The translations under genes were made by a program, and so were the position numbers. From contig CALNYG010000004.1 of the NCBI GenBank assembly GCA_942490825.1, forward strand, positions 116,888 to 180,887: a stretch of DNA of 64,000 bases, given 5' to 3'. The DNA is from Candidatus Moraniibacteriota bacterium. GTDB taxonomy: Bacteria > Patescibacteriota > Minisyncoccia > Moranbacterales > GCA-2747515. Each line of letters opens with the position of its first letter. The first letter of the stretch is position 1. Below the pieces are notes generated by a model. The model saw only the letters and a list, made by a program, of their open reading frames with translations, did not search any database and was not told the origin of the DNA. Below, in pieces: positions 1,559 to 40,780 of the stretch.

Positions 1559-3868
1559 CTATCCTGAACATCCTTCACAAACATTACCAGTTTTCTCAAC
1601 TTCACCTGACAAACTCCTCACATAATAAATTGTCTTAATTCCCTTTCGCCAAGCATTAAAATAATAATTATATAGCTGTAACGGACTCGTTTTTACCGGA
1701 TCAATCATCCATTCAAAACTCACCGATTGATCAATCCACTTATAAATCACGCTCATCATATCGATCACATCGTCCATATCCATGTCCATATATTCTTTGT
1801 AAAAAAAGTAATTTTCCCGATTCAATTTCGGTGCCACACGAACTGTTGGCGCAGAAAGATTAGTCTCTACAAAATATCTCTTATAAATCGGTAACATAGC
1901 TGCAGTTGTCCCAACTACCCCCGCTGTTGAAGTGTTCGGAGCTGGAGCTGTATGATAAGAAAAACGCACACCATATTTTTTCATATCAGTAAAAAGCTGT
2001 TTCCACTTCTCACCATGATCAGTGTTTTCTTCATACCATTTATGATCTCGGTTTAAAATCAAACCTTTATCATAATCACTACCCTTGTAAACTTTGTAAG
2101 TCCCTCGCTCTTTTGCTAAGTCAACCGACACTCGATAAGTGTGATAGGAATATCGTTCAAATAAATTATTCACATATTCTCTCGCTTCTTTACTGTCATA
2201 TTTAATTTTATTCACTGCCAAATGCTCTGCCAAACCAAGATAACCGATTCCCATACTGCGATAACGCTCTGCTGTATATTCTGCTTCTTTAACAGGATAA
2301 GATGTTAAAGTAATCACATTATCAACAATACGCTCCACAACAGGAATAACTTCAGCTATAGTTTTATCATCGTGAACTTTTGCCACATTTATTGATGCTA
2401 AATTACACACAACAAAATCACCTGGTTTATATCGCAAAACAATTTTTCCATCCTCAATTTTTTCTTCAATAAATTTTGATGGATTTGAATTTTGGCAAAT
2501 TTCTGTGCAAGCCTGAGTTGAATAAATATTTCCCGCATGTCGATTAGCGTTTTCTCTATTGACCGTATCGCGAAAAAATACATAAGGCATTCCCGTTTCA
2601 ACCGCCACCTTCATAAACTTTTTAAATAAATCCTTCGCTTTCACAGTTCGCTTAACTTTCAGCCGATCATCTTTTTCTAGAACTTTATAAAGCTTAACAA
2701 AATCCTTATCAAAATTATCTTGTAATTTTTTACCATGAACTAATTCAATTTCATGTGGATCAAAAATTGTCCATTCCGCATCCTGCTCTACCCTTTCCAT
2801 AAACAAATCTGGAATAGAAATTGCTGGAAAAATATCATAAGCTTTAGATCGAATATCTCCAGACTCTGTTTGCAAATCAAGAAAATCGTAAATATCATAA
2901 TGCCAAACATCCAAGGTTGTTGAAATAACGCCTAAACGAGTTCCTTGCTGATTTACTGCTGTTGCGGTATCATTAATGACTTTTATCCAAGGAATCACAC
3001 CACCAGAAACACCTTTTTCACCACGAATTTCCGCCTCTCGAGAGCGAATATTTCCAAGGTAAACTCCCATTCCCCCGCCAAACTTTGAGATCTGTGCCAT
3101 ATTTTCAATACCATGATAAATCGCTCGCAAATCATCATCAATATTTAATTTGAAACAACTTGATAATTGATGATATGTTGTTCGTGCGTTTAACAGAGTT
3201 GGCGTCGGCAAAGAAATTTTTTGTTGTGAACAATTATCATAAATCTGCAAAGCAAATTTTAAACGATTTTCTTTCTTTTCTGGAATTGCTAAAAATAATG
3301 CAACTGACATGTACATTTGTTGTGGTAATTCTTTTACAACTTTATTCGGATTTAAAAGATAACGTTTTGCTAAAGATAAAACGGTTGTATATTCATAATC
3401 CTGATCACGTTTCGTATCAATGTGTCGACCAGCTTCTAAAATATCTTCCTTTGAATAATATTTGTAAAAGTCTTGATAATACAAATTGTTTTCCATGTAT
3501 TCCTCAAAGAGCGACAAATAAGATTCTGGAGTGTAAAGTTTTTCAACTGACAATCCTCGATTTCGTGAGGCTTGTTTGTAAAGATTACTCACGAAAATTC
3601 GTGCTGCGACGTGTTGCCAGGCAATATTAGTTACTGTAACTAAATCGATACAAGCTTTGACCATTAACTGATTGATGTTTGATGTTTTAATTTCATCAAC
3701 AACATTTTTTTCAAAAGCTTGGAGGAATGCATCAAATTTACATTCTTTTTTATAACCTTTAACACCCCGCTCAAAAACTTTTCTGATTTTTTCCACGTCA
3801 AAAGTTTTTTGAGAATTATCAAATTTAATAACTTTAATATTTTTTTCTTTAATTTTATTTTTAGACAT
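1559..3868 (-). CDS. nrdA: ribonucleotide reductase class Ia large (alpha/R1) subunit
   Basis: 769-aa ORF. It has an N-terminal ATP-cone-like segment (VIKFDNSQKTFDVEKIRKV), a conserved R1 core (LSSCFKL, PWIKVIND, TAPAPNTSTA) and a C-terminal redox tail CEGCSG. Confidence 0.93.
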   Translation of the reverse strand: MSKNKIKEKNIKVIKFDNSQKTFDVEKIRKVFERGVKGYKKECKFDAFLQAFEKNVVDEIKTSNINQLMVKACIDLVTVTNIAWQHVAARIFVSNLYKQASRNRGLSVEKLYTPESYLSLFEEYMENNLYYQDFYKYYSKEDILEAGRHIDTKRDQDYEYTTVLSLAKRYLLNPNKVVKELPQQMYMSVALFLAIPEKKENRLKFALQIYDNCSQQKISLPTPTLLNARTTYHQLSSCFKLNIDDDLRAIYHGIENMAQISKFGGGMGVYLGNIRSREAEIRGEKGVSGGVIPWIKVINDTATAVNQQGTRLGVISTTLDVWHYDIYDFLDLQTESGDIRSKAYDIFPAISIPDLFMERVEQDAEWTIFDPHEIELVHGKKLQDNFDKDFVKLYKVLEKDDRLKVKRTVKAKDLFKKFMKVAVETGMPYVFFRDTVNRENANRHAGNIYSTQACTEICQNSNPSKFIEEKIEDGKIVLRYKPGDFVVCNLASINVAKVHDDKTIAEVIPVVERIVDNVITLTSYPVKEAEYTAERYRSMGIGYLGLAEHLAVNKIKYDSKEAREYVNNLFERYSYHTYRVSVDLAKERGTYKVYKGSDYDKGLILNRDHKWYEENTDHGEKWKQLFTDMKKYGVRFSYHTAPAPNTSTAGVVGTTAAMLPIYKRYFVETNLSAPTVRVAPKLNRENYFFYKEYMDMDMDDVIDMMSVIYKWIDQSVSFEWMIDPVKTSPLQLYNYYFNAWRKGIKTIYYVRSLSGEVEKTGNVCEGCSG

Positions 3869-4047
3869 AATTTTTTGTTTAATTTTTTAGACTGAAATCA
3901 ACTTAACGTAACAATAATGTAGATGAAATGTTGACCTCTAATTAATCAAATTTTTCAAATTTTATTTGTAAATAATTTTTCAGAGTCAAAAAAAGAGGTA
4001 AGTCAAAAAAGCCCAACCCCTTTTAAACTCATTCACAAAAAAATAGC

Positions 4048-4674
4048 TTATAATTTCCCAATTAAATCAACGCCTGGCTTCAAAGTCTTTTTTCCTGGGG
4101 TCCAACTCGCTGGACAAACCTGACCTTTATTCTTATCAACAAACTGAGCCGCTTGAATTTTTCTAATCAATTCATCAACATTTCGTCCAATACTATTATC
4201 ATTCACTTCATAAGCCTTCAAAATACCTTTTGGATCGATAATAAAAGTCCCTCGTAAAGACAATCCCTCATCATCAATGTAAACACCAAACATTTGAGAT
4301 AACTTCCCAGTCGGATCAGCCGCCATCGGGAATTTTATCTTTCCAACTGCCGGAGAACTGTCATGCCAAGCCTTGTGACAAAAAGCTGTATCTGTAGAAA
4401 CACTAACTACTTCTACACCTAGACTCTTTAATTTAGCATAAGCATTTGCCATATCTTCTAACTCAGTTGGACAAATAAACGTAAAATCCGCTGGATAGAA
4501 AAACAAAATTGTCCATTTATTATTCCTCCTAAAATTTGAAAGTTTAGTTTTTTTAATTTTATTAGCATGATAAACTTCAAATTCACACTCTGGAACTTTT
4601 CTACCAATCACAGGCAGTTCATTTATTGAAAAATCTGAAAAATACATTTCGTCTTCCATTATTTCTTTTGTCAT
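4048..4674 (-). CDS. 2-Cys peroxiredoxin (AhpC/Prx1 family)
   Basis: Peroxidatic Cys motif FFYPADFTFICPTE and resolving Cys motif GQVCPASW. Confidence 0.9.
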   Translation of the reverse strand: MTKEIMEDEMYFSDFSINELPVIGRKVPECEFEVYHANKIKKTKLSNFRRNNKWTILFFYPADFTFICPTELEDMANAYAKLKSLGVEVVSVSTDTAFCHKAWHDSSPAVGKIKFPMAADPTGKLSQMFGVYIDDEGLSLRGTFIIDPKGILKAYEVNDNSIGRNVDELIRKIQAAQFVDKNKGQVCPASWTPGKKTLKPGVDLIGKL

Positions 4675-9212: not shown

Positions 9213-10409
9213 ATGCAAAATTCCAAAATCCAAAAACTAATCCAAGAAATAAACAATACCGAAAAACAAAAAGTAAAATTCCCCATCGCTGACAAAACAA
9301 TTCACTTGGATAGATTAGAAAATAATATTCATAAAATAAAAAAAGCTTTTCTAAAAAATAACAAGAAAATTCTAATTCCCGTAAAAGCCAATGCTTATGG
9401 TCACGGAATAATTCCTGTTGCAAAATTTTTAGAAGAAAAAAATTTAGTCGATTATTTTGGAACTGCTCATTTGGAAGAGGCTCGGCTGTTACGAAAAAAT
9501 GAAATTGAGACAAATATTTTAGTTTTGAGTCAACCTATTTTTAATGAAGAAAGTATTGATTTTATCATTGAAAACGATATCGAAATTTCTGTTTCTGATT
9601 TTAATTTTATAGAAAAAGTTTCTATTTATTTAAAAAATAGTGATAAAAAAATAAAAATTCACTTAATGATCGACACAGGAATGGGTCGTGAAGGAATTTT
9701 AGCAAAAAATTTAAAGAGTGAAGATTTACAAAAAATTAGAGAAAATAAAAATATTGATTTGATTGGCGTTTACACACATTTTGCTGTTGCGGATGAAAGT
9801 GAAAAAACAAGTGTTGAATTTACTGAATCGCAAATTGATAAATTTATAAAAGTTAAAGAAATAGTTGAAAATATTTTTGACGACAAGAAAATTATTTTTC
9901 ACACTGCAAATTCTGGTGCTACCCTGTCGAATAAAAAAGCTATCTTTGATATGATTCGTCCGGGAATTTTGACTTATGGTTATTCTGATAATTTAACTAT
10001 CGATGTGAAGCCTGTTTTGGAATTGAAAACTAAAATATCTTTAATTAAAAAATTTCCGCCAAATTATTCTATTGGTTATGGCAGAACTTATAAAACGAAA
10101 AATGAAGAAAATGTTGGAATTATTCCGATTGGTTATGGTGATGGTTTAATGAGGGCTGGGAGTAATAAATTTCGATTTATTGTGAATAATTCTTCTGCGA
10201 AAGTTTCAGGAAGGATAAGTATGGATCAAACTTCTGTTTTGATTGGCGAGAAGGTTAAAGTTGGTGATGAGGTTATTTTGATCGGTGAGAGTGGTGATAA
10301 GGGTGTTTGGGCTGATGATTTGGCGAAGTTGGTTGATTCTATTGCTTATGAGGTTTTGACTGGGTTTGGGGATCAGAAGAGAATTGGGAGTGTTTATAAG
10401 TACAAGTAA
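9213..10409 (+). CDS. alr: alanine racemase
   Basis: PLP-lysine motif VKANAYGHG and the PIGYGDG region; 398 aa. Confidence 0.9.
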   Translation: MQNSKIQKLIQEINNTEKQKVKFPIADKTIHLDRLENNIHKIKKAFLKNNKKILIPVKANAYGHGIIPVAKFLEEKNLVDYFGTAHLEEARLLRKNEIETNILVLSQPIFNEESIDFIIENDIEISVSDFNFIEKVSIYLKNSDKKIKIHLMIDTGMGREGILAKNLKSEDLQKIRENKNIDLIGVYTHFAVADESEKTSVEFTESQIDKFIKVKEIVENIFDDKKIIFHTANSGATLSNKKAIFDMIRPGILTYGYSDNLTIDVKPVLELKTKISLIKKFPPNYSIGYGRTYKTKNEENVGIIPIGYGDGLMRAGSNKFRFIVNNSSAKVSGRISMDQTSVLIGEKVKVGDEVILIGESGDKGVWADDLAKLVDSIAYEVLTGFGDQKRIGSVYKYK

Positions 10410-10433
10410 ACTTTAATCACTTTTTAAAAAATC

Positions 10434-12146
10434 CTATTCACTAAAAACTATCTTTTCAATAAATTTTCTAGCATCTTCTAATTCTGAATCACTAGCCAAA
10501 TCTTTTGTTTCTAAAACTTCATTTACCCACTTTGGACCATGATTACCGATACTTTTTACAAAACGTTCTAATTCACCAAGTTCAACAATAAATAATCCAC
10601 TTTTTTCAAATATTTCTTGTAACTCATTAAATTTACTAGTTGGATCACCTGACGGAACAGAGCACTTGCCGTCATCTTTAGCAATTTGCCATGGTGATTT
10701 TACCTTAATGATTTTTCTTATCTCTTTGGCGTCTTTAACAGAAATTATATCATTTGATATTCCATCAATATAATCTTTAATATTTTTTTCTAAACAATCT
10801 TTTCTTAAATTATCTACTGACTTTGAATCTATACTATTTTTAATCAACTTCCAATTACTTTCAACACTAGACCATTCTATCTCCAATGACTCAACAATCC
10901 CCTTTAATGGATTTTGATTATTCAAAACATCAAAATCAACGATCACTGAAACTGGCACTCCTATCTTTTTTAAAGCATTAACTACCGTACTTACCCTATC
11001 TTTACCTCCACAATGAACAAATAATAGATCTGTAGTATAATCATCCCTCTCCTCACAAATAGAATCTAATATCGCTGAATAAAACTTACAATCAGAATCA
11101 CTTTCACAAACGATTACTTTTTTATGAAATAAACCACTTAAAATATTTGAATACTTTAAAATAGGATCTTCCCATACATCTTTAACACCTTCATTATCTA
11201 ATTCACAAATATTATTTACATTTCCTTCTCTATTAATTCTAATTATTTTAACATTAGAATCCTTCTCATCTAACAAACCCTTTAAAAAATCCTCACTGTG
11301 AGTTGAAATAAAAACTTGTTTATCCTTTGTTAAACTTTGAGAAAGCATTTTACCTAGTAATTTTGCTTGAGGTGGATGTAAAAAAGCTTCTGGCTCATCT
11401 ATTAAAAATACAGATTTATAAGAAATTATCATATTAAGTAAAATTCCTACAAAACTTTTCATACCGTCTCCTTGTTCATGTAAAAAAGGCAATTTATCCA
11501 ATTTTTCATTATATTCATTTGAAATTCTATCATTTTCTTTAGTATATTCAATTTTTTCTCCAACATGTAACGGTATCTGATTTCCAGCTCTATAATTTAA
11601 AATAAGACACTCACCAAAAGATTTTTTAAAATAATCATTAATTTCATCTTGCAAATTCTCATCTTTATATAAAAAGTGTATCGGATGTTGCGGTTGTTCT
11701 TTAAAACCAATACTATTAGTTGGACCAACCATACCAAGACGATTTTGAGTATCAATAAAAGAAATAAAAATATTACTTAGCTCTCTTATTCCTTCCGCAT
11801 AACCGTTATAGTAACTTCTTATATTATTTTCATGTAAACTAAACTGATAACCTTCATATGTCTTAAAAGAATCTGCTCCGTATTTTTCTTCTGAAAATGA
11901 TTTTAAAAAATTAATAAAATTGTCATCGTTTCCTCTTTTGGAAATATTAATATTTTTAACTACTATTCCTGCATTTTCTGTGCTCGGATTATTTATAATT
12001 TTTTCTCTGATATTTTTTAAAACAACACTTTTACCTGAATTATTAGGACCAACAAAAACTACAGTACTATTCTCTTCAAGTATTATTTCATTACCATCAT
12101 TAAAAACTATTTTATCAACAAAAAAACTAAATTCATTATTTGACAT
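10434..12146 (-). CDS. OLD-family-like ATPase with a C-terminal Toprim/DUF4435-like nuclease domain
   Basis: Walker A FVGPNNSGKS, signature-like QGDGMKSF, Walker B VFLIDEPEAFLHP and H-loop ISTHSEDF. The C-terminal part has VIVCESDSDCKFY (Toprim Glu), HCGGKD and VIVDFDVL (DxD). Confidence 0.65.
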   Translation of the reverse strand: MSNNEFSFFVDKIVFNDGNEIILEENSTVVFVGPNNSGKSVVLKNIREKIINNPSTENAGIVVKNINISKRGNDDNFINFLKSFSEEKYGADSFKTYEGYQFSLHENNIRSYYNGYAEGIRELSNIFISFIDTQNRLGMVGPTNSIGFKEQPQHPIHFLYKDENLQDEINDYFKKSFGECLILNYRAGNQIPLHVGEKIEYTKENDRISNEYNEKLDKLPFLHEQGDGMKSFVGILLNMIISYKSVFLIDEPEAFLHPPQAKLLGKMLSQSLTKDKQVFISTHSEDFLKGLLDEKDSNVKIIRINREGNVNNICELDNEGVKDVWEDPILKYSNILSGLFHKKVIVCESDSDCKFYSAILDSICEERDDYTTDLLFVHCGGKDRVSTVVNALKKIGVPVSVIVDFDVLNNQNPLKGIVESLEIEWSSVESNWKLIKNSIDSKSVDNLRKDCLEKNIKDYIDGISNDIISVKDAKEIRKIIKVKSPWQIAKDDGKCSVPSGDPTSKFNELQEIFEKSGLFIVELGELERFVKSIGNHGPKWVNEVLETKDLASDSELEDARKFIEKIVFSE

Positions 12147-13439: not shown

Positions 13440-14093
13440 TCAAATACAAGGCATTTTTTCAATAAAATCTTTATAATCTTTTAGATCATAATCAAACTGC
13501 TCTAAAATAACATCTTTATCACACAACATTCCATTTCTTTTTCCAAGATAATCTAAAAGACTAGAATATTTCCAATTTTTATTTTTGCCTCCATGAATGA
13601 AATGATTTTGATTTACATAAGCAGATAGATACAAAAGATATTCATTTGAATCAATGTGAATTGACTTGAATTTTCCTTGAAAAAGTGAGCCTGAACGTTT
13701 GTGTTTTTTGTTAAAATACATCGTGTAAGAAGTTCCTAATTTCTGCATAAATCTTTCTACACCCTTATCTGCGTTTTGTTTCAAAATAAAATGATAATGA
13801 TTTGGATTTAAACAATATGCAACAAATTCAACAAGTTTATTCCTACTCTTAAGTTGTTCTTTGAAATTATTTTCAAACACTCCAAGGTTCGACCTTCGGG
13901 GATCCGAAGGTCGAACCTTTTCACGTTGATAATCTCTATAAAGTTGCATCAATCCATTGTTTTCATCATTCAACAAATTCATATTCAAGATAAATCTTTT
14001 GTAATCATCTTCATCCATAAAAACGTCCCTTTTATCAACACCTCGATTATATATATGATAGAATTCTCCATTTACAAATTCTGTTTTTCTCAT
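13440..14093 (-). CDS. REP-associated tyrosine transposase-like protein (RAYT / IS200-like Y1 HUH family)
   Basis: FYHIYNRG, the HUH motif in AYCLNPNHYHFIL, YTMYFNKKHKRSGSLFQGKFKS, catalytic-Tyr region YLLYLSAYVNQN, and WKYSS. I prefer the ATG at 14093; the ORF-track start at 14117 is a TTG. The stop codon is TGA. Confidence 0.85.
   Translation of the reverse strand: MRKTEFVNGEFYHIYNRGVDKRDVFMDEDDYKRFILNMNLLNDENNGLMQLYRDYQREKVRPSDPRRSNLGVFENNFKEQLKSRNKLVEFVAYCLNPNHYHFILKQNADKGVERFMQKLGTSYTMYFNKKHKRSGSLFQGKFKSIHIDSNEYLLYLSAYVNQNHFIHGGKNKNWKYSSLLDYLGKRNGMLCDKDVILEQFDYDLKDYKDFIEKMPCI
13884..13919. repeat. perfect 36-nt palindrome (16-bp arms, 4-nt loop) inside the RAYT-like ORF
   Basis: AAGGTTCGACCTTCGG-GGAT-CCGAAGGTCGAACCTT. 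It is a GC-rich island in an AT-rich gene and is translated in frame as KVRPSDPRRSNL. Confidence 0.95.
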
Positions 14094-14108
14094 AAAAAAA
14101 TTTAAATC

Positions 14109-14144
14109 AAAACTCAATCTTCAAAAACCCAAAGATTGAGTTTT
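14109..14144 (-). terminator. terminator-like hairpin after leuS
   Basis: AAAACTCAATCTT / AAGATTGAGTTTT 12-13 bp stem between the leuS stop (14160) and the RAYT ATG (14093). Confidence 0.5.
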
Positions 14145-14159
14145 AAAATAACTAAACCC

Positions 14160-22083: not shown

Positions 22084-22145
22084 AATAAAATATTTTGAAA
22101 TTTTATTTATTCAAGATTTTAAATTCCTAATTCAAAACTTTACCC

Positions 22146-24989
22146 CTACAAATATTTCCCCGTCAAACTTTTCTTACACTTCTTTAACTTATCAGGTCTT
22201 CCCACAAAAATAATCTCACCACCAGCATCACCACCATCTGGCCCAAGCTCAACCACCCAGTCCGCCTGTTTAACCACATCCAAATTATGCTCCACAACAA
22301 TAATCGTATTTCCCTTATCAACCAATCGTTCTAAAACATGTAACAATTTTCTAATATCCTCAAAATGCAAGCCAACTGTTGGCTCATCTAAAATATATAA
22401 AGTATTTCCAATCGACTTTCTTGCCAATTCAGTCGCTAACTTAATTCTTTGCGCTTCACCACCAGAAAGATTTGTCGCACTCTGTCCTAACTTTAAATAA
22501 TCTAAACCAACATCCTTCATAATTTGCAACTTGTCCGCAATCAAAGGCTCGTTCCTAAAAAATTCCAACGCATAACCCACACTCATACCTAACACATCCG
22601 CAATATTTTGACCACAATGCTCAATTTCTAAAATTTTATTACTGTACCGACTACCATTACAAGCCTCACATTCAACATACACATCTGGCAACAAATGCAT
22701 CTCAACCTTTGTTACACCATCACCATGACACACCTCGCAACGTCCACCTTTCATATTAAAACTAAAATGACGTGCTGTATATCCTCGCTCCTCAGCTTGC
22801 CCAACTTCCGCAAATAACTCTCGAATATGTGTAAAAATTCCAGTATAAGTTGCTGCATTTGAACGAGGAGTTTTACCGATTGGAGACTGAGTAATATTAA
22901 TTACTTTTTTAATATTTGCCAAACCTTCAATTGATTTATGTAAACCAGGATTTGCCTTTGCATTATAAAAATGCTTACTTAAAGCTCGAGCTAAAATATT
23001 ATTTACTAAAGTTGATTTACCGCTGCCAGAAACTCCTGCCACAACATTAAAAGATTCCAATGGGAAATCAATTGACACGTTTTTTAAATTATTCTCCTCT
23101 GCATCATTCACAGAAATAAATTTACCATTGCCATGACGATACTTTATTTTATTATGAACCTTCTTTTTTCCACTAATATATTGACTAGTCAAACTATTTG
23201 ATTTTTCAAGTTTTTTAAAATCACCATCAAAAATTAACTCACCGCCTAATTCACCTGCTCCCTCACCCATATCAATAATATGATCTGCTGATTTAATCAC
23301 ATCTGCATCATGCTCAACAACTAATAAAGTATTTCCTGACTCCTGCAAGTTTTTCATCGTTTCAATAAGTTTGAAAGTATCTCGACTATGCAAACCAATT
23401 GTTGGTTCATCTAAAACATAAATCACTCCCGTCAAATCAGATTTAATTTGAACTGATAGACGAATTCGCTGAGCTTCACCACCGCTCAAAGTGTTACTCG
23501 TTCGTGATAAAGATAAATATTCTAAACCAACATTACAAAGAATGTTCGTACGTGAAGACATTTCACTAACTAATTGACTAACAACACTTTTCTTTGAGCC
23601 ATTTTCCCACTTCAAAGTATTCAATTTGACTATTTCATTTTTAAAATCACCTAAAGACATTTGAACATAGTCATCAATTGATTTACCATCAATTAATACT
23701 GAAAGGTATTCTTTTCTTAATTTTCTACCATCACATTCAGTACAAATATGTTTATCCATATATCTTTCCAAATCTATTCGCATATGATCAGATTTAGTGT
23801 TATCATACTTATCCTCTAAATCTTTAATAACACCATCGAATTTTACTTTCTCTCCTTTTACTGTCATCATATCTTCTGAACCCTGAAAAATAATATCTAA
23901 TTGTTTCTTGGTAAATTTACTAACTGGTTGATTGACTGAAAATTTATATTTTCTGCCCAAAGATCTTAAAAGTGCTATTTTATCTTGATTAAAATTACTC
24001 TTATGATTAAAGTTTGCCCAACAATGAATAGCACCTTCTAAAATTGATAATTTTTTATTTGGAATAAGTAGATCAGCATCAAACTTATTTTGCTTTCCAA
24101 TTCCATCACAGACAGGACAAGCTCCCTCTGGATGATTAAAAGAAAAATTTCGTGAATTTAGTTCTGACAGATGAAAGCCTGACTCTGGAGAAAAAAACTC
24201 ATTTGAATACAATTTCTCCTCCTTCTTATAAAGAATAATACAAGCGCCTAAACCTATTTTCATAGCTGTATCTATCGAATCGAAAATATATTCTCGATCT
24301 TCTTCATCTCCAGAAAAAGTAAATTCATCAATCACAATTTCAATCTTTGCATCCACCTCATCATCAACAACTGACTGAATATCATTAACTGTAACAATTT
24401 TGTCATTGTAACGAACTCTTGCAAATCCTTTCTTTGCAACTAAATTTAATACATTACTGTTCTTTTTTTCTTCTGTGACAAATGGCGCCAAAATCATAAC
24501 CCGTTCATCTTTATCAAACTGTAAAATTTCATCTACTATATCAGAAGCAGTTTTTCTATCTAAAGACTTCCCTGTCTTAGGACAATGTGGAATTCCCACT
24601 GTAGAAAAAAGTATTCGAAGATAATCATAAATCTCAGTCATTGTTCCTACTGTAGAACGTATTGACCGACCAACACTCTTTTGATCAATGGCAATTGCTG
24701 GTGAAAGATTTTCTATCTTCTCAACATCTGGCTTAGTTGCTACTCCAATTAAAGTTCTAGCGTAAGATGACAAACTCTCCATAAATCGCCGATTACTTTC
24801 TGCATAAACTACGTCAAAAACCAATGAGCTTTTTCCACTTCCTGACAGTCCAGTTACCACTGTCATTTTGTTTCTTGGAAATTTTACTGAAATATCTTTA
24901 AGATTGTTTTCTTTTGCTCCGTAAACTGAAATGTTACTAAAGTCTGTTTTTGACTTACTTGATTTCGAGGCTGTTTTCTTTTTTGACAT
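22146..24989 (-). CDS. uvrA: excinuclease ABC subunit A
   Basis: Two ABC modules (GLSGSGKSS, GVSGSGKST, LSGGEAQR x2) and Zn-finger Cys clusters. I prefer the ATG at 24989. Confidence 0.95.
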   Translation of the reverse strand: MSKKKTASKSSKSKTDFSNISVYGAKENNLKDISVKFPRNKMTVVTGLSGSGKSSLVFDVVYAESNRRFMESLSSYARTLIGVATKPDVEKIENLSPAIAIDQKSVGRSIRSTVGTMTEIYDYLRILFSTVGIPHCPKTGKSLDRKTASDIVDEILQFDKDERVMILAPFVTEEKKNSNVLNLVAKKGFARVRYNDKIVTVNDIQSVVDDEVDAKIEIVIDEFTFSGDEEDREYIFDSIDTAMKIGLGACIILYKKEEKLYSNEFFSPESGFHLSELNSRNFSFNHPEGACPVCDGIGKQNKFDADLLIPNKKLSILEGAIHCWANFNHKSNFNQDKIALLRSLGRKYKFSVNQPVSKFTKKQLDIIFQGSEDMMTVKGEKVKFDGVIKDLEDKYDNTKSDHMRIDLERYMDKHICTECDGRKLRKEYLSVLIDGKSIDDYVQMSLGDFKNEIVKLNTLKWENGSKKSVVSQLVSEMSSRTNILCNVGLEYLSLSRTSNTLSGGEAQRIRLSVQIKSDLTGVIYVLDEPTIGLHSRDTFKLIETMKNLQESGNTLLVVEHDADVIKSADHIIDMGEGAGELGGELIFDGDFKKLEKSNSLTSQYISGKKKVHNKIKYRHGNGKFISVNDAEENNLKNVSIDFPLESFNVVAGVSGSGKSTLVNNILARALSKHFYNAKANPGLHKSIEGLANIKKVINITQSPIGKTPRSNAATYTGIFTHIRELFAEVGQAEERGYTARHFSFNMKGGRCEVCHGDGVTKVEMHLLPDVYVECEACNGSRYSNKILEIEHCGQNIADVLGMSVGYALEFFRNEPLIADKLQIMKDVGLDYLKLGQSATNLSGGEAQRIKLATELARKSIGNTLYILDEPTVGLHFEDIRKLLHVLERLVDKGNTIIVVEHNLDVVKQADWVVELGPDGGDAGGEIIFVGRPDKLKKCKKSLTGKYL

Positions 24990-36863: not shown

Positions 36864-36939
36864 AAAAAACTTTAACAAAATTATTTTTCCTATCTCTAAA
36901 ATACTAAAAATATATACCCCTCTAAATTTCACAGGCCAT

Positions 36940-37279
36940 CAAAAGATAATCTATAAGCTGGATTCTGTCGAGAATAGTGATTTACCTTGTTTATATGTTG
37001 CCATATAAATCCTCGCGACTCACCCCACACCCACAATTTAAATATAAATTATGGGTGTGGGGTACGGTCTTGCACTTAAGTAAGGATTTAGCCGTTTCAC
37101 CTTCCATGTTTCCACAGAAGCTTATCCCGAAGGATAGATCAGAGCTTTCGCGCCAATCCGTCTCTGCTCGCACCTCATGGGTCACCCCAGACGGGAGTTA
37201 CCCGCTACCTCGCTGTCTTCGTAAAAAAAAGACAAGTGTCCAGACTTTCCTCTCCGTAGAGCCACTATTTAATCATCTT
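36940..37279 (-). ncRNA. rnpB: RNase P RNA, bacterial type A
   Basis: The minus strand carries GGAGAGGAAAGTCTGGACAC (CR-I), GGAAGGTGAAACGGC and GACAGAATCCAGCTTAT (CR-V). P1 pairs AGAUGAUU with GAUUAUCU. The region is a local GC-rich island, and the ends are approximate. Confidence 0.85.
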
Positions 37280-37536
37280 TTAATGGACAATATTATTTAG
37301 AGTATTATTTTTAACTGTGGTTATTATACAATAAATTTAACGAAAAATAAAGGAAAAGTTGATTGACTTTTTAATCTCTCTATTGAGTTGAATACAATAT
37401 TTTAAAAGTTCAGATTTAATTTTAAAATTGAAAAAAAATATAAATCATTTAATTTATAAAAAATTTTCTATAAAATTTCTAGTCTACCAACTCTTTATTC
37501 TTATTAATGTTGCTGAAAAGCTGGTATTTAAAAAGT

Positions 37537-40617: not shown

Positions 40618-40780
40618 AAAGTGCTCGCCGCACGGGCTTTTCTGAACAAGGGGTCATGACCCCTTGTTCAGATTCTAAAAATTTTCTGTCATTCTGAACG
40701 GATTTATTTTTTTCAGAAAAAATATAGTAGTGAAGTCTGCCTATCGGCAGATAGGAATCCCCCACAGAGAATCACAAAAC
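40618..40780 (+). repeat. composite repeat with GC-box copy 5, a 32-nt perfect palindrome, a GTCATTCTGAACG hairpin module and a nested 20-nt mini-palindrome
   Basis: GC-box at 40618-40641. The palindrome TCTGAACAAGGGGTCA|TGACCCCTTGTTCAGA is at 40641-40672. CTGTCATTCTGAACG...GTGAAG[TCTGCCTATCGGCAGATAGG]AATCCCCC has the bracketed insert at 40736-40755. The whole block is colinear with 51077-51201. Confidence 0.9.

Follow-up and report, generated by a model that had tools for sequence, protein, structure and literature searches.

REPs (repetitive extragenic palindromic sequences) have been described within tnpA_REP genes belonging to subclass 2.4, in frame, for Cyanobacteria and Bacteroidetes (Quentin, Siguier, Chandler, Fichant 2018, PMC6006769). 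The proteins of this subclass bear the motifs NH[IFV]H, WQ and YIxNNP, and their REP inserts lie between the HuH and the Y; those of subclass 2.1 bear NH[YF]H, FQ and an 'SS' tail, and no REPs were reported for them (PMC6006769). Intragenic REPs of the GTAG/CGTC type are known too, uvr and further repair genes being frequent hosts (De Nocera et al. 2013, PMC3733652). In its passages on the Rickettsia palindromic elements (RPEs), the same article presents RPE-1 as a longer palindromic insertion than the REP-sized repeats. Here we address a perfect 36-nt palindrome that lies in frame inside a gene resembling those of the REP-associated tyrosine transposases (RAYT). The gene is found in a 64,000-nucleotide stretch of a Candidatus Moraniibacteriota bacterium (contig CALNYG010000004.1, positions 116,888 to 180,887), and this whole stretch is referred to as the window.

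We consider it likely that the palindrome is an in-frame REP/REPIN-like miniature element, seated in a disordered loop of a Patescibacteria-wide clade of histidine-hydrophobic-histidine (HUH)/Y1, or RAYT-like, enzymes, and presumed to be a single-stranded DNA (ssDNA) hairpin substrate of its host enzyme. The element is made of two inverted copies of a hairpin unit of about 13-17 nt and takes up 12 codons. Its family is dispersed, with near-identical copies in frame in unrelated housekeeping genes and in the intergenic DNA of related organisms, and the loop site is an insertion polymorphism across the enzyme family. By analogy with described systems, the RAYT-like enzyme probably spreads such elements.

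The palindrome and its host protein

The gene, its motifs and the palindrome are placed as follows in the window.

13440..14093, minus strand: HUH/Y1 'RAYT-like' gene, ATG at 14093, stop codon at 13440-13442, 217 aa (protein P0001)
14040..14060, minus strand: N-terminal YHIYNRG block, codons 12-18, read from the sequence; Y12, H13, N16 and G18 invariant in the alignment
13884..13919, no strand assigned: perfect 36-nt palindrome with 16-bp arms and a 4-nt centre, codons 59-70 of the RAYT-like gene
13791..13799, minus strand: HUH motif H99-Y100-H101, read from the sequence; H99 and H101 invariant in the alignment
13617..13619, minus strand: putative catalytic tyrosine Y159 in the motif YVNQN; Y159 and N163 invariant in the alignment

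The palindrome reads AAGGTTCGACCTTCGG-GGAT-CCGAAGGTCGAACCTT, and its arms (13884-13899 and 13904-13919) are 16 nt each, 100% complementary and 4 nt apart. It starts in frame at gene offset 174, and its codons yield the peptide KVRPSDPRRSNL; the 36-mer contains no stop in any of the six frames. The layout is that of two inverted copies of the short hairpin unit AAGGT-tcg-ACCTT. The GC content amounts to 56%, versus 27% in the remainder of the RAYT-like gene. The sequence-only reading that preceded this analysis had described a 36-nt palindrome with mismatch-free 16-bp arms around GGAT, translated in frame within the coding sequence and richer in GC than the surrounding gene, and each of these points is borne out.

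In the window, perfect stems of 16 bp or longer that enclose a loop of up to 10 nt occur twice, versus 0.01 per dinucleotide-preserving shuffle. Neither additional copies nor half-units of the palindrome are present within the 64 kb, and the 16-mer arm has no further match anywhere in the window at up to three mismatches (0.22 expected by chance). A second perfect palindrome, unrelated in sequence to that of the RAYT-like gene, is located in an intergenic spacer at 40641-40672; it is 32 nt long and loopless, with TCTGAACAAGGGGTCA followed directly by TGACCCCTTGTTCAGA. An assembly artefact was rejected as the origin of the 36-nt palindrome, which is present in many independent assemblies and always in frame.

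The host protein belongs to the HUH/Y1 transposase superfamily. It passes the profile cut-off of Pfam Y1_Tnp (PF01797; 35.5 bits versus 23, E = 1.2e-8, over residues 84-163 only), and it contains both the HUH and a single tyrosine on the C-terminal helix. The YHxxNRG block, H99/H101 and Y159/N163 are invariant in a homolog alignment of 38 relatives, and all of them are kept in the window protein. From knowledge of the IS200/RAYT family, we infer a catalytic role for Y159. The class 2 tyrosine motif Y---NP is not found here, the window having YVNQNH and the family consensus being YVNxN[NH]F, without proline. There are 4960 database homologs of about 220 aa, and those with names belong to Patescibacteria or Moranbacteria. 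The window protein ends about 17 aa before most of its homologs, without the conserved NALYLKEKKELEKYILE tail (13440-13500), and its 3' end may be truncated.

Structurally, the AlphaFold (AF2) model has a mean predicted local distance difference test score (pLDDT) of 85, and its helix 150-161 bears Y159. The palindrome-encoded block 61-70 has a mean pLDDT of 50, the lowest of the model, and residues 65-68 fall below 50. In the model, the peptide is a surface loop that joins the N-terminal helices and the HUH strand, outside the structured core; this is the surface loop for which the sequence-only reading had proposed a structure prediction. The top solved structure in a Foldseek search is 4ER8 (4er8_A), the E. 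coli TnpA_REP with a REP hairpin (E = 1.8e-5, target-normalised TM 0.65), and the next matches are the IS608 and ISDra2 transposases.

Filled and empty sites in orthologs and in unrelated genes

The ortholog set consists of 79 genomic loci (L001-L079), in which the segment from the YH motif to the HxH motif was located in 80 genes. A perfect stem of at least 9 bp is present in this segment in 49 of the 80 genes (61%), versus 1% after codon shuffling, and one of at least 16 bp in 17 genes (21%), versus 0%. The internal hairpin starts at a median of 48 aa past the YH motif. Measured from YHxxNRG to HxH, the segment has 68-70 aa in orthologs without a hairpin, mostly 71-78 aa with a single hairpin, 80-96 aa with a long palindrome, and 90 aa in the window. 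Since segment length rises with hairpin content across orthologs, the palindrome acts as an indel, a point that the sequence-only reading had proposed to check. That reading had also put the segment at about 30 aa longer than usual; it is longer, with an excess over hairpin-free orthologs of about 20 aa, 12 of which come from the palindrome. No ortholog was found that encodes the peptide by non-palindromic codons.

The loop site is empty in about a third of the orthologs, and these hairpin-free genes usually keep their flanking hairpins. Close relatives have internal palindromes of 36-52 nt, often loopless, and more distant orthologs have just one hairpin, typically ACTTGG-NNNN-loop-NNNN-CCAAGT, with 10-13 bp in its stem. 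The single-hairpin orthologs mostly follow ACTT[GA]G...C[CT]AAGT, and a few (L026, L034) have GTAG...CTAC. Between genomes, the internal hairpin sequences are very different and are read in three frames, giving for example KVRPS..RRSNL, GGSTS..EVEPP and QLGxxxSKL. The arrangement of leuS next to the RAYT-like gene is common to the window, L001 and L004. Seven loci of the set (L018, L019, L020, L024, L039, L040, L054) have GTDB titles such as 'uncultured Gammaproteobacteria', 'Bdellovibrionales' or 'Bathyarchaeia' despite a Patescibacteria-type gene and hairpins, and are probably mislabelled or contaminated bins.

Beyond the orthologs, an exact-pattern scan over metagenome contigs returned the window palindrome in 18 contigs, one of which is a RAYT ortholog with the element at the same site. 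In 13 of the 18, the palindrome is in frame inside long open reading frames (ORFs), at nine distinct sites, and in the remaining contigs it lies in short-ORF or intergenic DNA. The host genes confirmed by Pfam are FolD, UvrC (at two positions), a class I/II aminotransferase, DUF763 and a P-type ATPase. NCBIfam assigns UvrA (TIGR00630, 957 bits, above cut-off) and a CopA-like ATPase, in which the insert occupies the linker after the metal-binding domain; one host ORF of 866 aa matches no family. The insert peptides KVQPSxxRRLNL, EGSTFGxPKVEPS and QRFNLRxSRRLNL represent three reading frames, and the copies in intergenic DNA and other genes are found in both orientations. The exact palindrome was not found in viral contigs.

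The uvrA gene carries the palindrome in frame in two metagenome loci, L083 and L095, and the window itself contains the matching empty site.

22839-24950 (also delimited as 22143-24950), minus strand: uvrA with an empty insert site, a 9-aa gap against the L083 uvrA falling exactly at the insert

As an observation in its own right, five of the 13 non-RAYT intragenic copies are in nucleotide-excision-repair genes, namely uvrC at two sites and uvrA (L082/L096, L090, L083/L095). The intragenic REPs of De Nocera et al. 2013 (PMC3733652) are likewise enriched in uvr and repair genes, although those are unrelated REP families in other phyla.

These data leave little for a palindrome that arose by chance, or for a peptide selected at the protein level. 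The segment is translated, and nothing else speaks for either. Chance is rejected by the shuffles and by the arm count given above. Selection on the peptide is excluded because different hosts read the element in three frames and because the peptide is the disordered, lowest-confidence loop of the model. We regard this explanation as having practically no probability.

Genome-specific hairpins and the constraint on their pairing

Around the enzyme genes, the hairpin inside the gene is repeated outside it. In 35 of 48 orthologs, the 120 nt upstream of the start contain a hairpin with the same 10-nt arm as the internal one, and so do the 120 nt downstream of the stop in 28 of 49, with both sides occupied in 23. 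The arm further recurs at a second in-frame site past the tyrosine motif in 10 orthologs, and farther off in the locus in 31. For arms taken from other loci as a control, about 3% match. Where one genome or locus has several paralogs, the hairpin type differs from paralog to paralog. The hairpins are genome-specific, flank the gene and lie inside it, which is a REPtron-like layout, as known for RAYTs (PMC6006769). Across the clade, the main in-gene site lies before the HUH, and two additional ones are located past the Y motif and close to the C-terminus. The locus L055 holds a clustered repeat of a different type, with five copies of a 32-nt hairpin, GAGACTCGGTTTCC-cgtt-GGAAACCGAGTCTC, irregularly spaced within 1.4 kb (2747-4169).

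A Moranbacteria protein at locus L098, 66% identical to the window protein, illustrates the layout. Its upstream copy, 'form A', has a 13-bp stem and a 10-nt loop, and its internal copy is a 44-nt perfect palindrome. Further copies are a form A that lies in frame close to the C-terminus, a palindrome of 46 nt past the stop, and a palindrome 2.8 kb off. In the window, there is no hairpin copy downstream of the RAYT-like gene and a single hairpin upstream.

14109..14144, no strand assigned: upstream hairpin with a 13-bp perfect stem and a 10-nt loop, in the spacer that separates the leuS stop from the RAYT start; ssDNA fold z = -6

This hairpin shares its shape and its position relative to the ATG with the L098 upstream copy, AAGGCTCAACCTT-gggggcattt-AAGGTTGAGCCTT. 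Ten of the 13 arm bases are alike, and the three differences are all compensated. It is probably a diverged, AT-enriched copy of the L098-type upstream REP (form A). With its T-rich tail (14107-14146, minus strand) it is terminator-like, and the REP remnant may now be used as the leuS terminator. As the internal copy stands alone save for this diverged hairpin, and as the C-terminal tail is short, the system in the window genome may be quiescent or decaying, though every invariant residue is kept.

The pairing of the hairpins was counted in eight centre-aligned orthologous palindromes. In this alignment, 15 of 17 pairs have substitutions in both arms, and no pair has changed in a single arm, which answers in the positive the test for compensatory changes that the sequence-only reading had proposed. 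Paired cells reach 99.3%, versus 78% in shuffles and at most 54% when the partner is slid, and the 136 aligned cells contain no G-U pair. The eight palindromes had been chosen for perfect stems, and a search by one arm alone was therefore added; of the 122 copies located this way, 90 have a perfect 10/10 partner arm, and in the near-perfect copies two of 18 mismatched pairs are G-T. Against L002, L003, L004 and L080, whose proteins are 62-71% identical to that of the window, the palindrome keeps 86-92% nucleotide identity, versus 64-71% in the rest of the gene, and third codon positions are 92-100% identical, versus 43-58%. The palindromes of the window, L001 and L004 differ by compensated changes.

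An mRNA structure that controls translation or stability, as a ribosome pause or an RNase III site and unrelated to DNA mobility, should be considered here, given the high stability of the hairpin as RNA (-32.5 kcal/mol, z = -6.7 against shuffled sequence) and its place within the coding part of a gene whose protein may have to be kept scarce. Folding had been among the checks proposed earlier, and both RNA and DNA prove far more stable than shuffles. However, as ssDNA both strands fold equally, at about -20 kcal/mol each (z = -8.5 and -7.4). The absence of G-U pairs and of one-sided changes, and the lack of G-T enrichment among the mismatches, do not fit an RNA, and the symmetry of many copies extends through the centre, for which an RNA hairpin has no need. 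The same sequence also occurs, in either orientation, between genes and within other genes. The intragenic palindrome has no intrinsic-terminator features, the upstream hairpin being the only terminator-like one of the two. A known RNA family was rejected as well: at gathering thresholds, Rfam gives a single match in the window, listed below, and none for the palindrome, and a permissive Rfam scan of the RAYT-like gene gives one sub-threshold match to a miRNA hairpin.

36938-37280, minus strand: class A bacterial RNase P RNA (Rfam, 114 bits, exceeding the gathering score)

We find an mRNA role improbable. The strict Watson-Crick pairing, the equal folding of both strands and the frequent symmetry of the centre point towards DNA and not RNA as the level of the constraint, whose source could be ssDNA hairpins or fold-back templating.

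Fold-back also underlies the explanation that the palindrome was formed in place by template-switch replication and is immobile, with likeness elsewhere due to convergence. The palindromes are indeed perfect through the centre, and in dimer forms self-complementarity of the 4-nt centre is far more frequent than one in 16 (AATT, ATAT, CTAG and CGCG are examples). Additionally, 24% of 148 copies have their stem extended by at least 3 bp of copy-specific complementary bases, versus 2% expected, which is a signature of template switching; among L001-L079, examples with a core common to the copies of the locus are L047 at 9964-10722 and L072 at 9864-9912. Such copy-specific extensions and palindromic centres suggest fold-back or template-switch processes. 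Nevertheless, unrelated genes and genomes have 16-nt arms that are the same or almost so, which rules out convergence, and arms of 56% GC sit in a gene of 27% GC. An origin purely in place is very improbable, and template switching may instead act on top of mobility, keeping the copies perfect.

The conserved pairing also bears on whether the hairpin in the enzyme's own frame is a functional part that couples the HUH enzyme to its substrate. As a selected cis component, it would be an autoregulatory site on the gene or transcript, or a 'master' (reference) copy that keeps enzyme and substrate co-inherited and co-evolving. In agreement with this, the loop is occupied in 61-69% of the 80 orthologs, from Moraniibacteriota to Paceibacteria-type lineages, and the internal sequence follows the flanking copies of the same gene. 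In the window, L001 and L004, where the leuS synteny is shared and the DNA examined contains no other copy, the hairpin remains rich in GC and perfectly paired. Synonymous sites are far better conserved in the palindrome than elsewhere in the gene. Yet the third of orthologs with an empty loop keep their flanking hairpins and all catalytic residues, and the same element resides in unrelated genes, where such a role cannot apply. Further sites inside the gene, at least two in number, are occupied in some orthologs, as expected of tolerated insertions. On balance, we think a cis role rather unlikely. If true, the coupling would explain why the same loop is filled in distant lineages, and why the internal copy is perfect and GC-rich where no others are seen. 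A linked possibility is that fold-back or template-switch synthesis keeps the copies perfect and growing outward; this would account for the self-complementary centres and the copy-specific stem extensions.

Proposed mobility and comparison with known systems

In the REP/REPIN-like reading that we favour, the enzyme would bind hairpins extruded in ssDNA, as IS608, ISDra2 and E. coli TnpA_REP suggest. It would then cut at the hairpin foot and re-join the hairpin elsewhere. Selection would remove gene-breaking copies in gene-dense genomes, leaving intergenic copies and frame-preserving copies in tolerant loops. The loops of the enzyme gene would be among these survivor sites, being nearest to the source copies.

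Several points weigh against the reading. The window-type element is missing the GT[AG]G foot of canonical REPs. REPs are expected as many dispersed copies in the same genome, and the 64-kb window holds a single copy, the dispersed ones being seen in related loci and metagenomes. The protein scores 28.2 bits with the NCBIfam REP_Tyr_transpos (RAYT) equivalog, below the cut-off of 80. The family sequence profile finds no match among PDB sequences of solved structures, including 4ER8, and hence it is the fold search that connects the family to the solved RAYT/IS200 structures. Recognition of the hairpin by the RAYT-like enzyme, plausible as it is, is an analogy with IS200/IS605 TnpA and E. coli TnpA_REP. 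Occupation of the same loop in very distant orthologs is not predicted for a purely passive passenger, and a selected role or a targeting bias may therefore be indicated. Finally, the copy-specific extensions and self-complementary centres are poorly explained by cut-and-paste of a fixed unit.

The sequence-only reading had offered three explanations, and they fare unequally. An in-frame palindromic-element insertion, as in Rickettsia, is the best supported, with copies in unrelated genes, three frames, empty sites and a low-confidence loop. A cis hairpin recognised by the enzyme gains from the identity of internal and flanking hairpin sequences and from the fold match to 4ER8, and the recognition itself is plausible. 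A palindromy selected at the nucleic-acid level holds true, by the compensatory changes without G-U and by the third positions, but the feature is not universal in the subfamily.

The significance lies in the hosts. The ultra-small, gene-dense genomes of Patescibacteria (the candidate phyla radiation, CPR) host a widespread REP/RAYT-type system, with an enzyme family of about 5000 proteins. Because the elements survive largely in frame in loops (uvrA, uvrC, folD), inserts in CPR proteins that are short, rich in GC and encoded by a palindrome should be read as mobile DNA and not as lineage-specific features. With its natural filled and empty sites, strict Watson-Crick hairpins and nested copies, the clade is suited to testing Y1 target choice. 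It is also useful for the study of enzyme-hairpin co-evolution, and of why repair genes recur as hosts.

Among the described systems, the REPtrons of subclass 2.4 are similar in that an HUH/Y1 gene is flanked by its own hairpins, frame-keeping copies lie in a peripheral variable region, and the hairpins are of the symmetric 'double foot' kind. The differences concern the phyla, Cyanobacteria and Bacteroidetes there and Patescibacteria here, as well as the motifs, NH[IFV]H/WQ/YIxNNP there and NHYH/FQ/YVNxN[NH]F here (YVNQNH in the window). The site also differs, with inserts between the HuH and the Y in subclass 2.4 and a main site before the HUH here. By motifs and insertion site, the window protein does not belong to subclass 2.4; the clade motifs, together with a WxYSS tail, are nearer to subclass 2.1. 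As to flanking, 35 of 48 and 28 of 49 orthologs have their own hairpin repeat upstream and downstream, whereas the window has only the diverged upstream hairpin.

The E. coli REPs and bacterial interspersed mosaic elements (BIMEs) with TnpA_REP (4ER8), together with the REPINs of Pseudomonas, reportedly described by Bertels and Rainey in 2011, have in common with this system the enzyme fold, the hairpin repeats that flank the gene, the inverted-dimer (REPIN-like) organisation of the hairpin unit and a hairpin type of its own for each paralog. Here, in contrast, the hairpins are perfect, without bulges or GTAG, the dimers have only 36-52 nt and are often loopless, and copy numbers are low. The enzyme has no detectable sequence similarity to the TnpA_REP of 4ER8 and lies below the NCBIfam RAYT cut-off.

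The subterminal hairpins of IS200/IS605 elements are likewise found by both ends of a Y1 transposase gene and are read as ssDNA. Unlike those, the present system does not consist of multicopy identical insertion sequences, its paralogs being just 50-60% identical. Three genomes have kept the gene in its leuS-linked place, and hairpins are also found within the ORF and dispersed alone. The RPEs and intragenic REPs are alike as palindromic repeats in frame in functional genes, tolerated in loops; they are probably an unrelated sequence family, and here the repeats are also in the gene of the presumed mobilising enzyme. The likeness to RPEs is functional only and lies in the in-frame palindromic inserts.

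Our literature searches on REP/RAYT in Patescibacteria or CPR found nothing relevant. Events of this kind, REP-type insertions in frame, are known; what is new is their occurrence in Patescibacteria, where the hairpin has no GTAG and the insertion site is another one.

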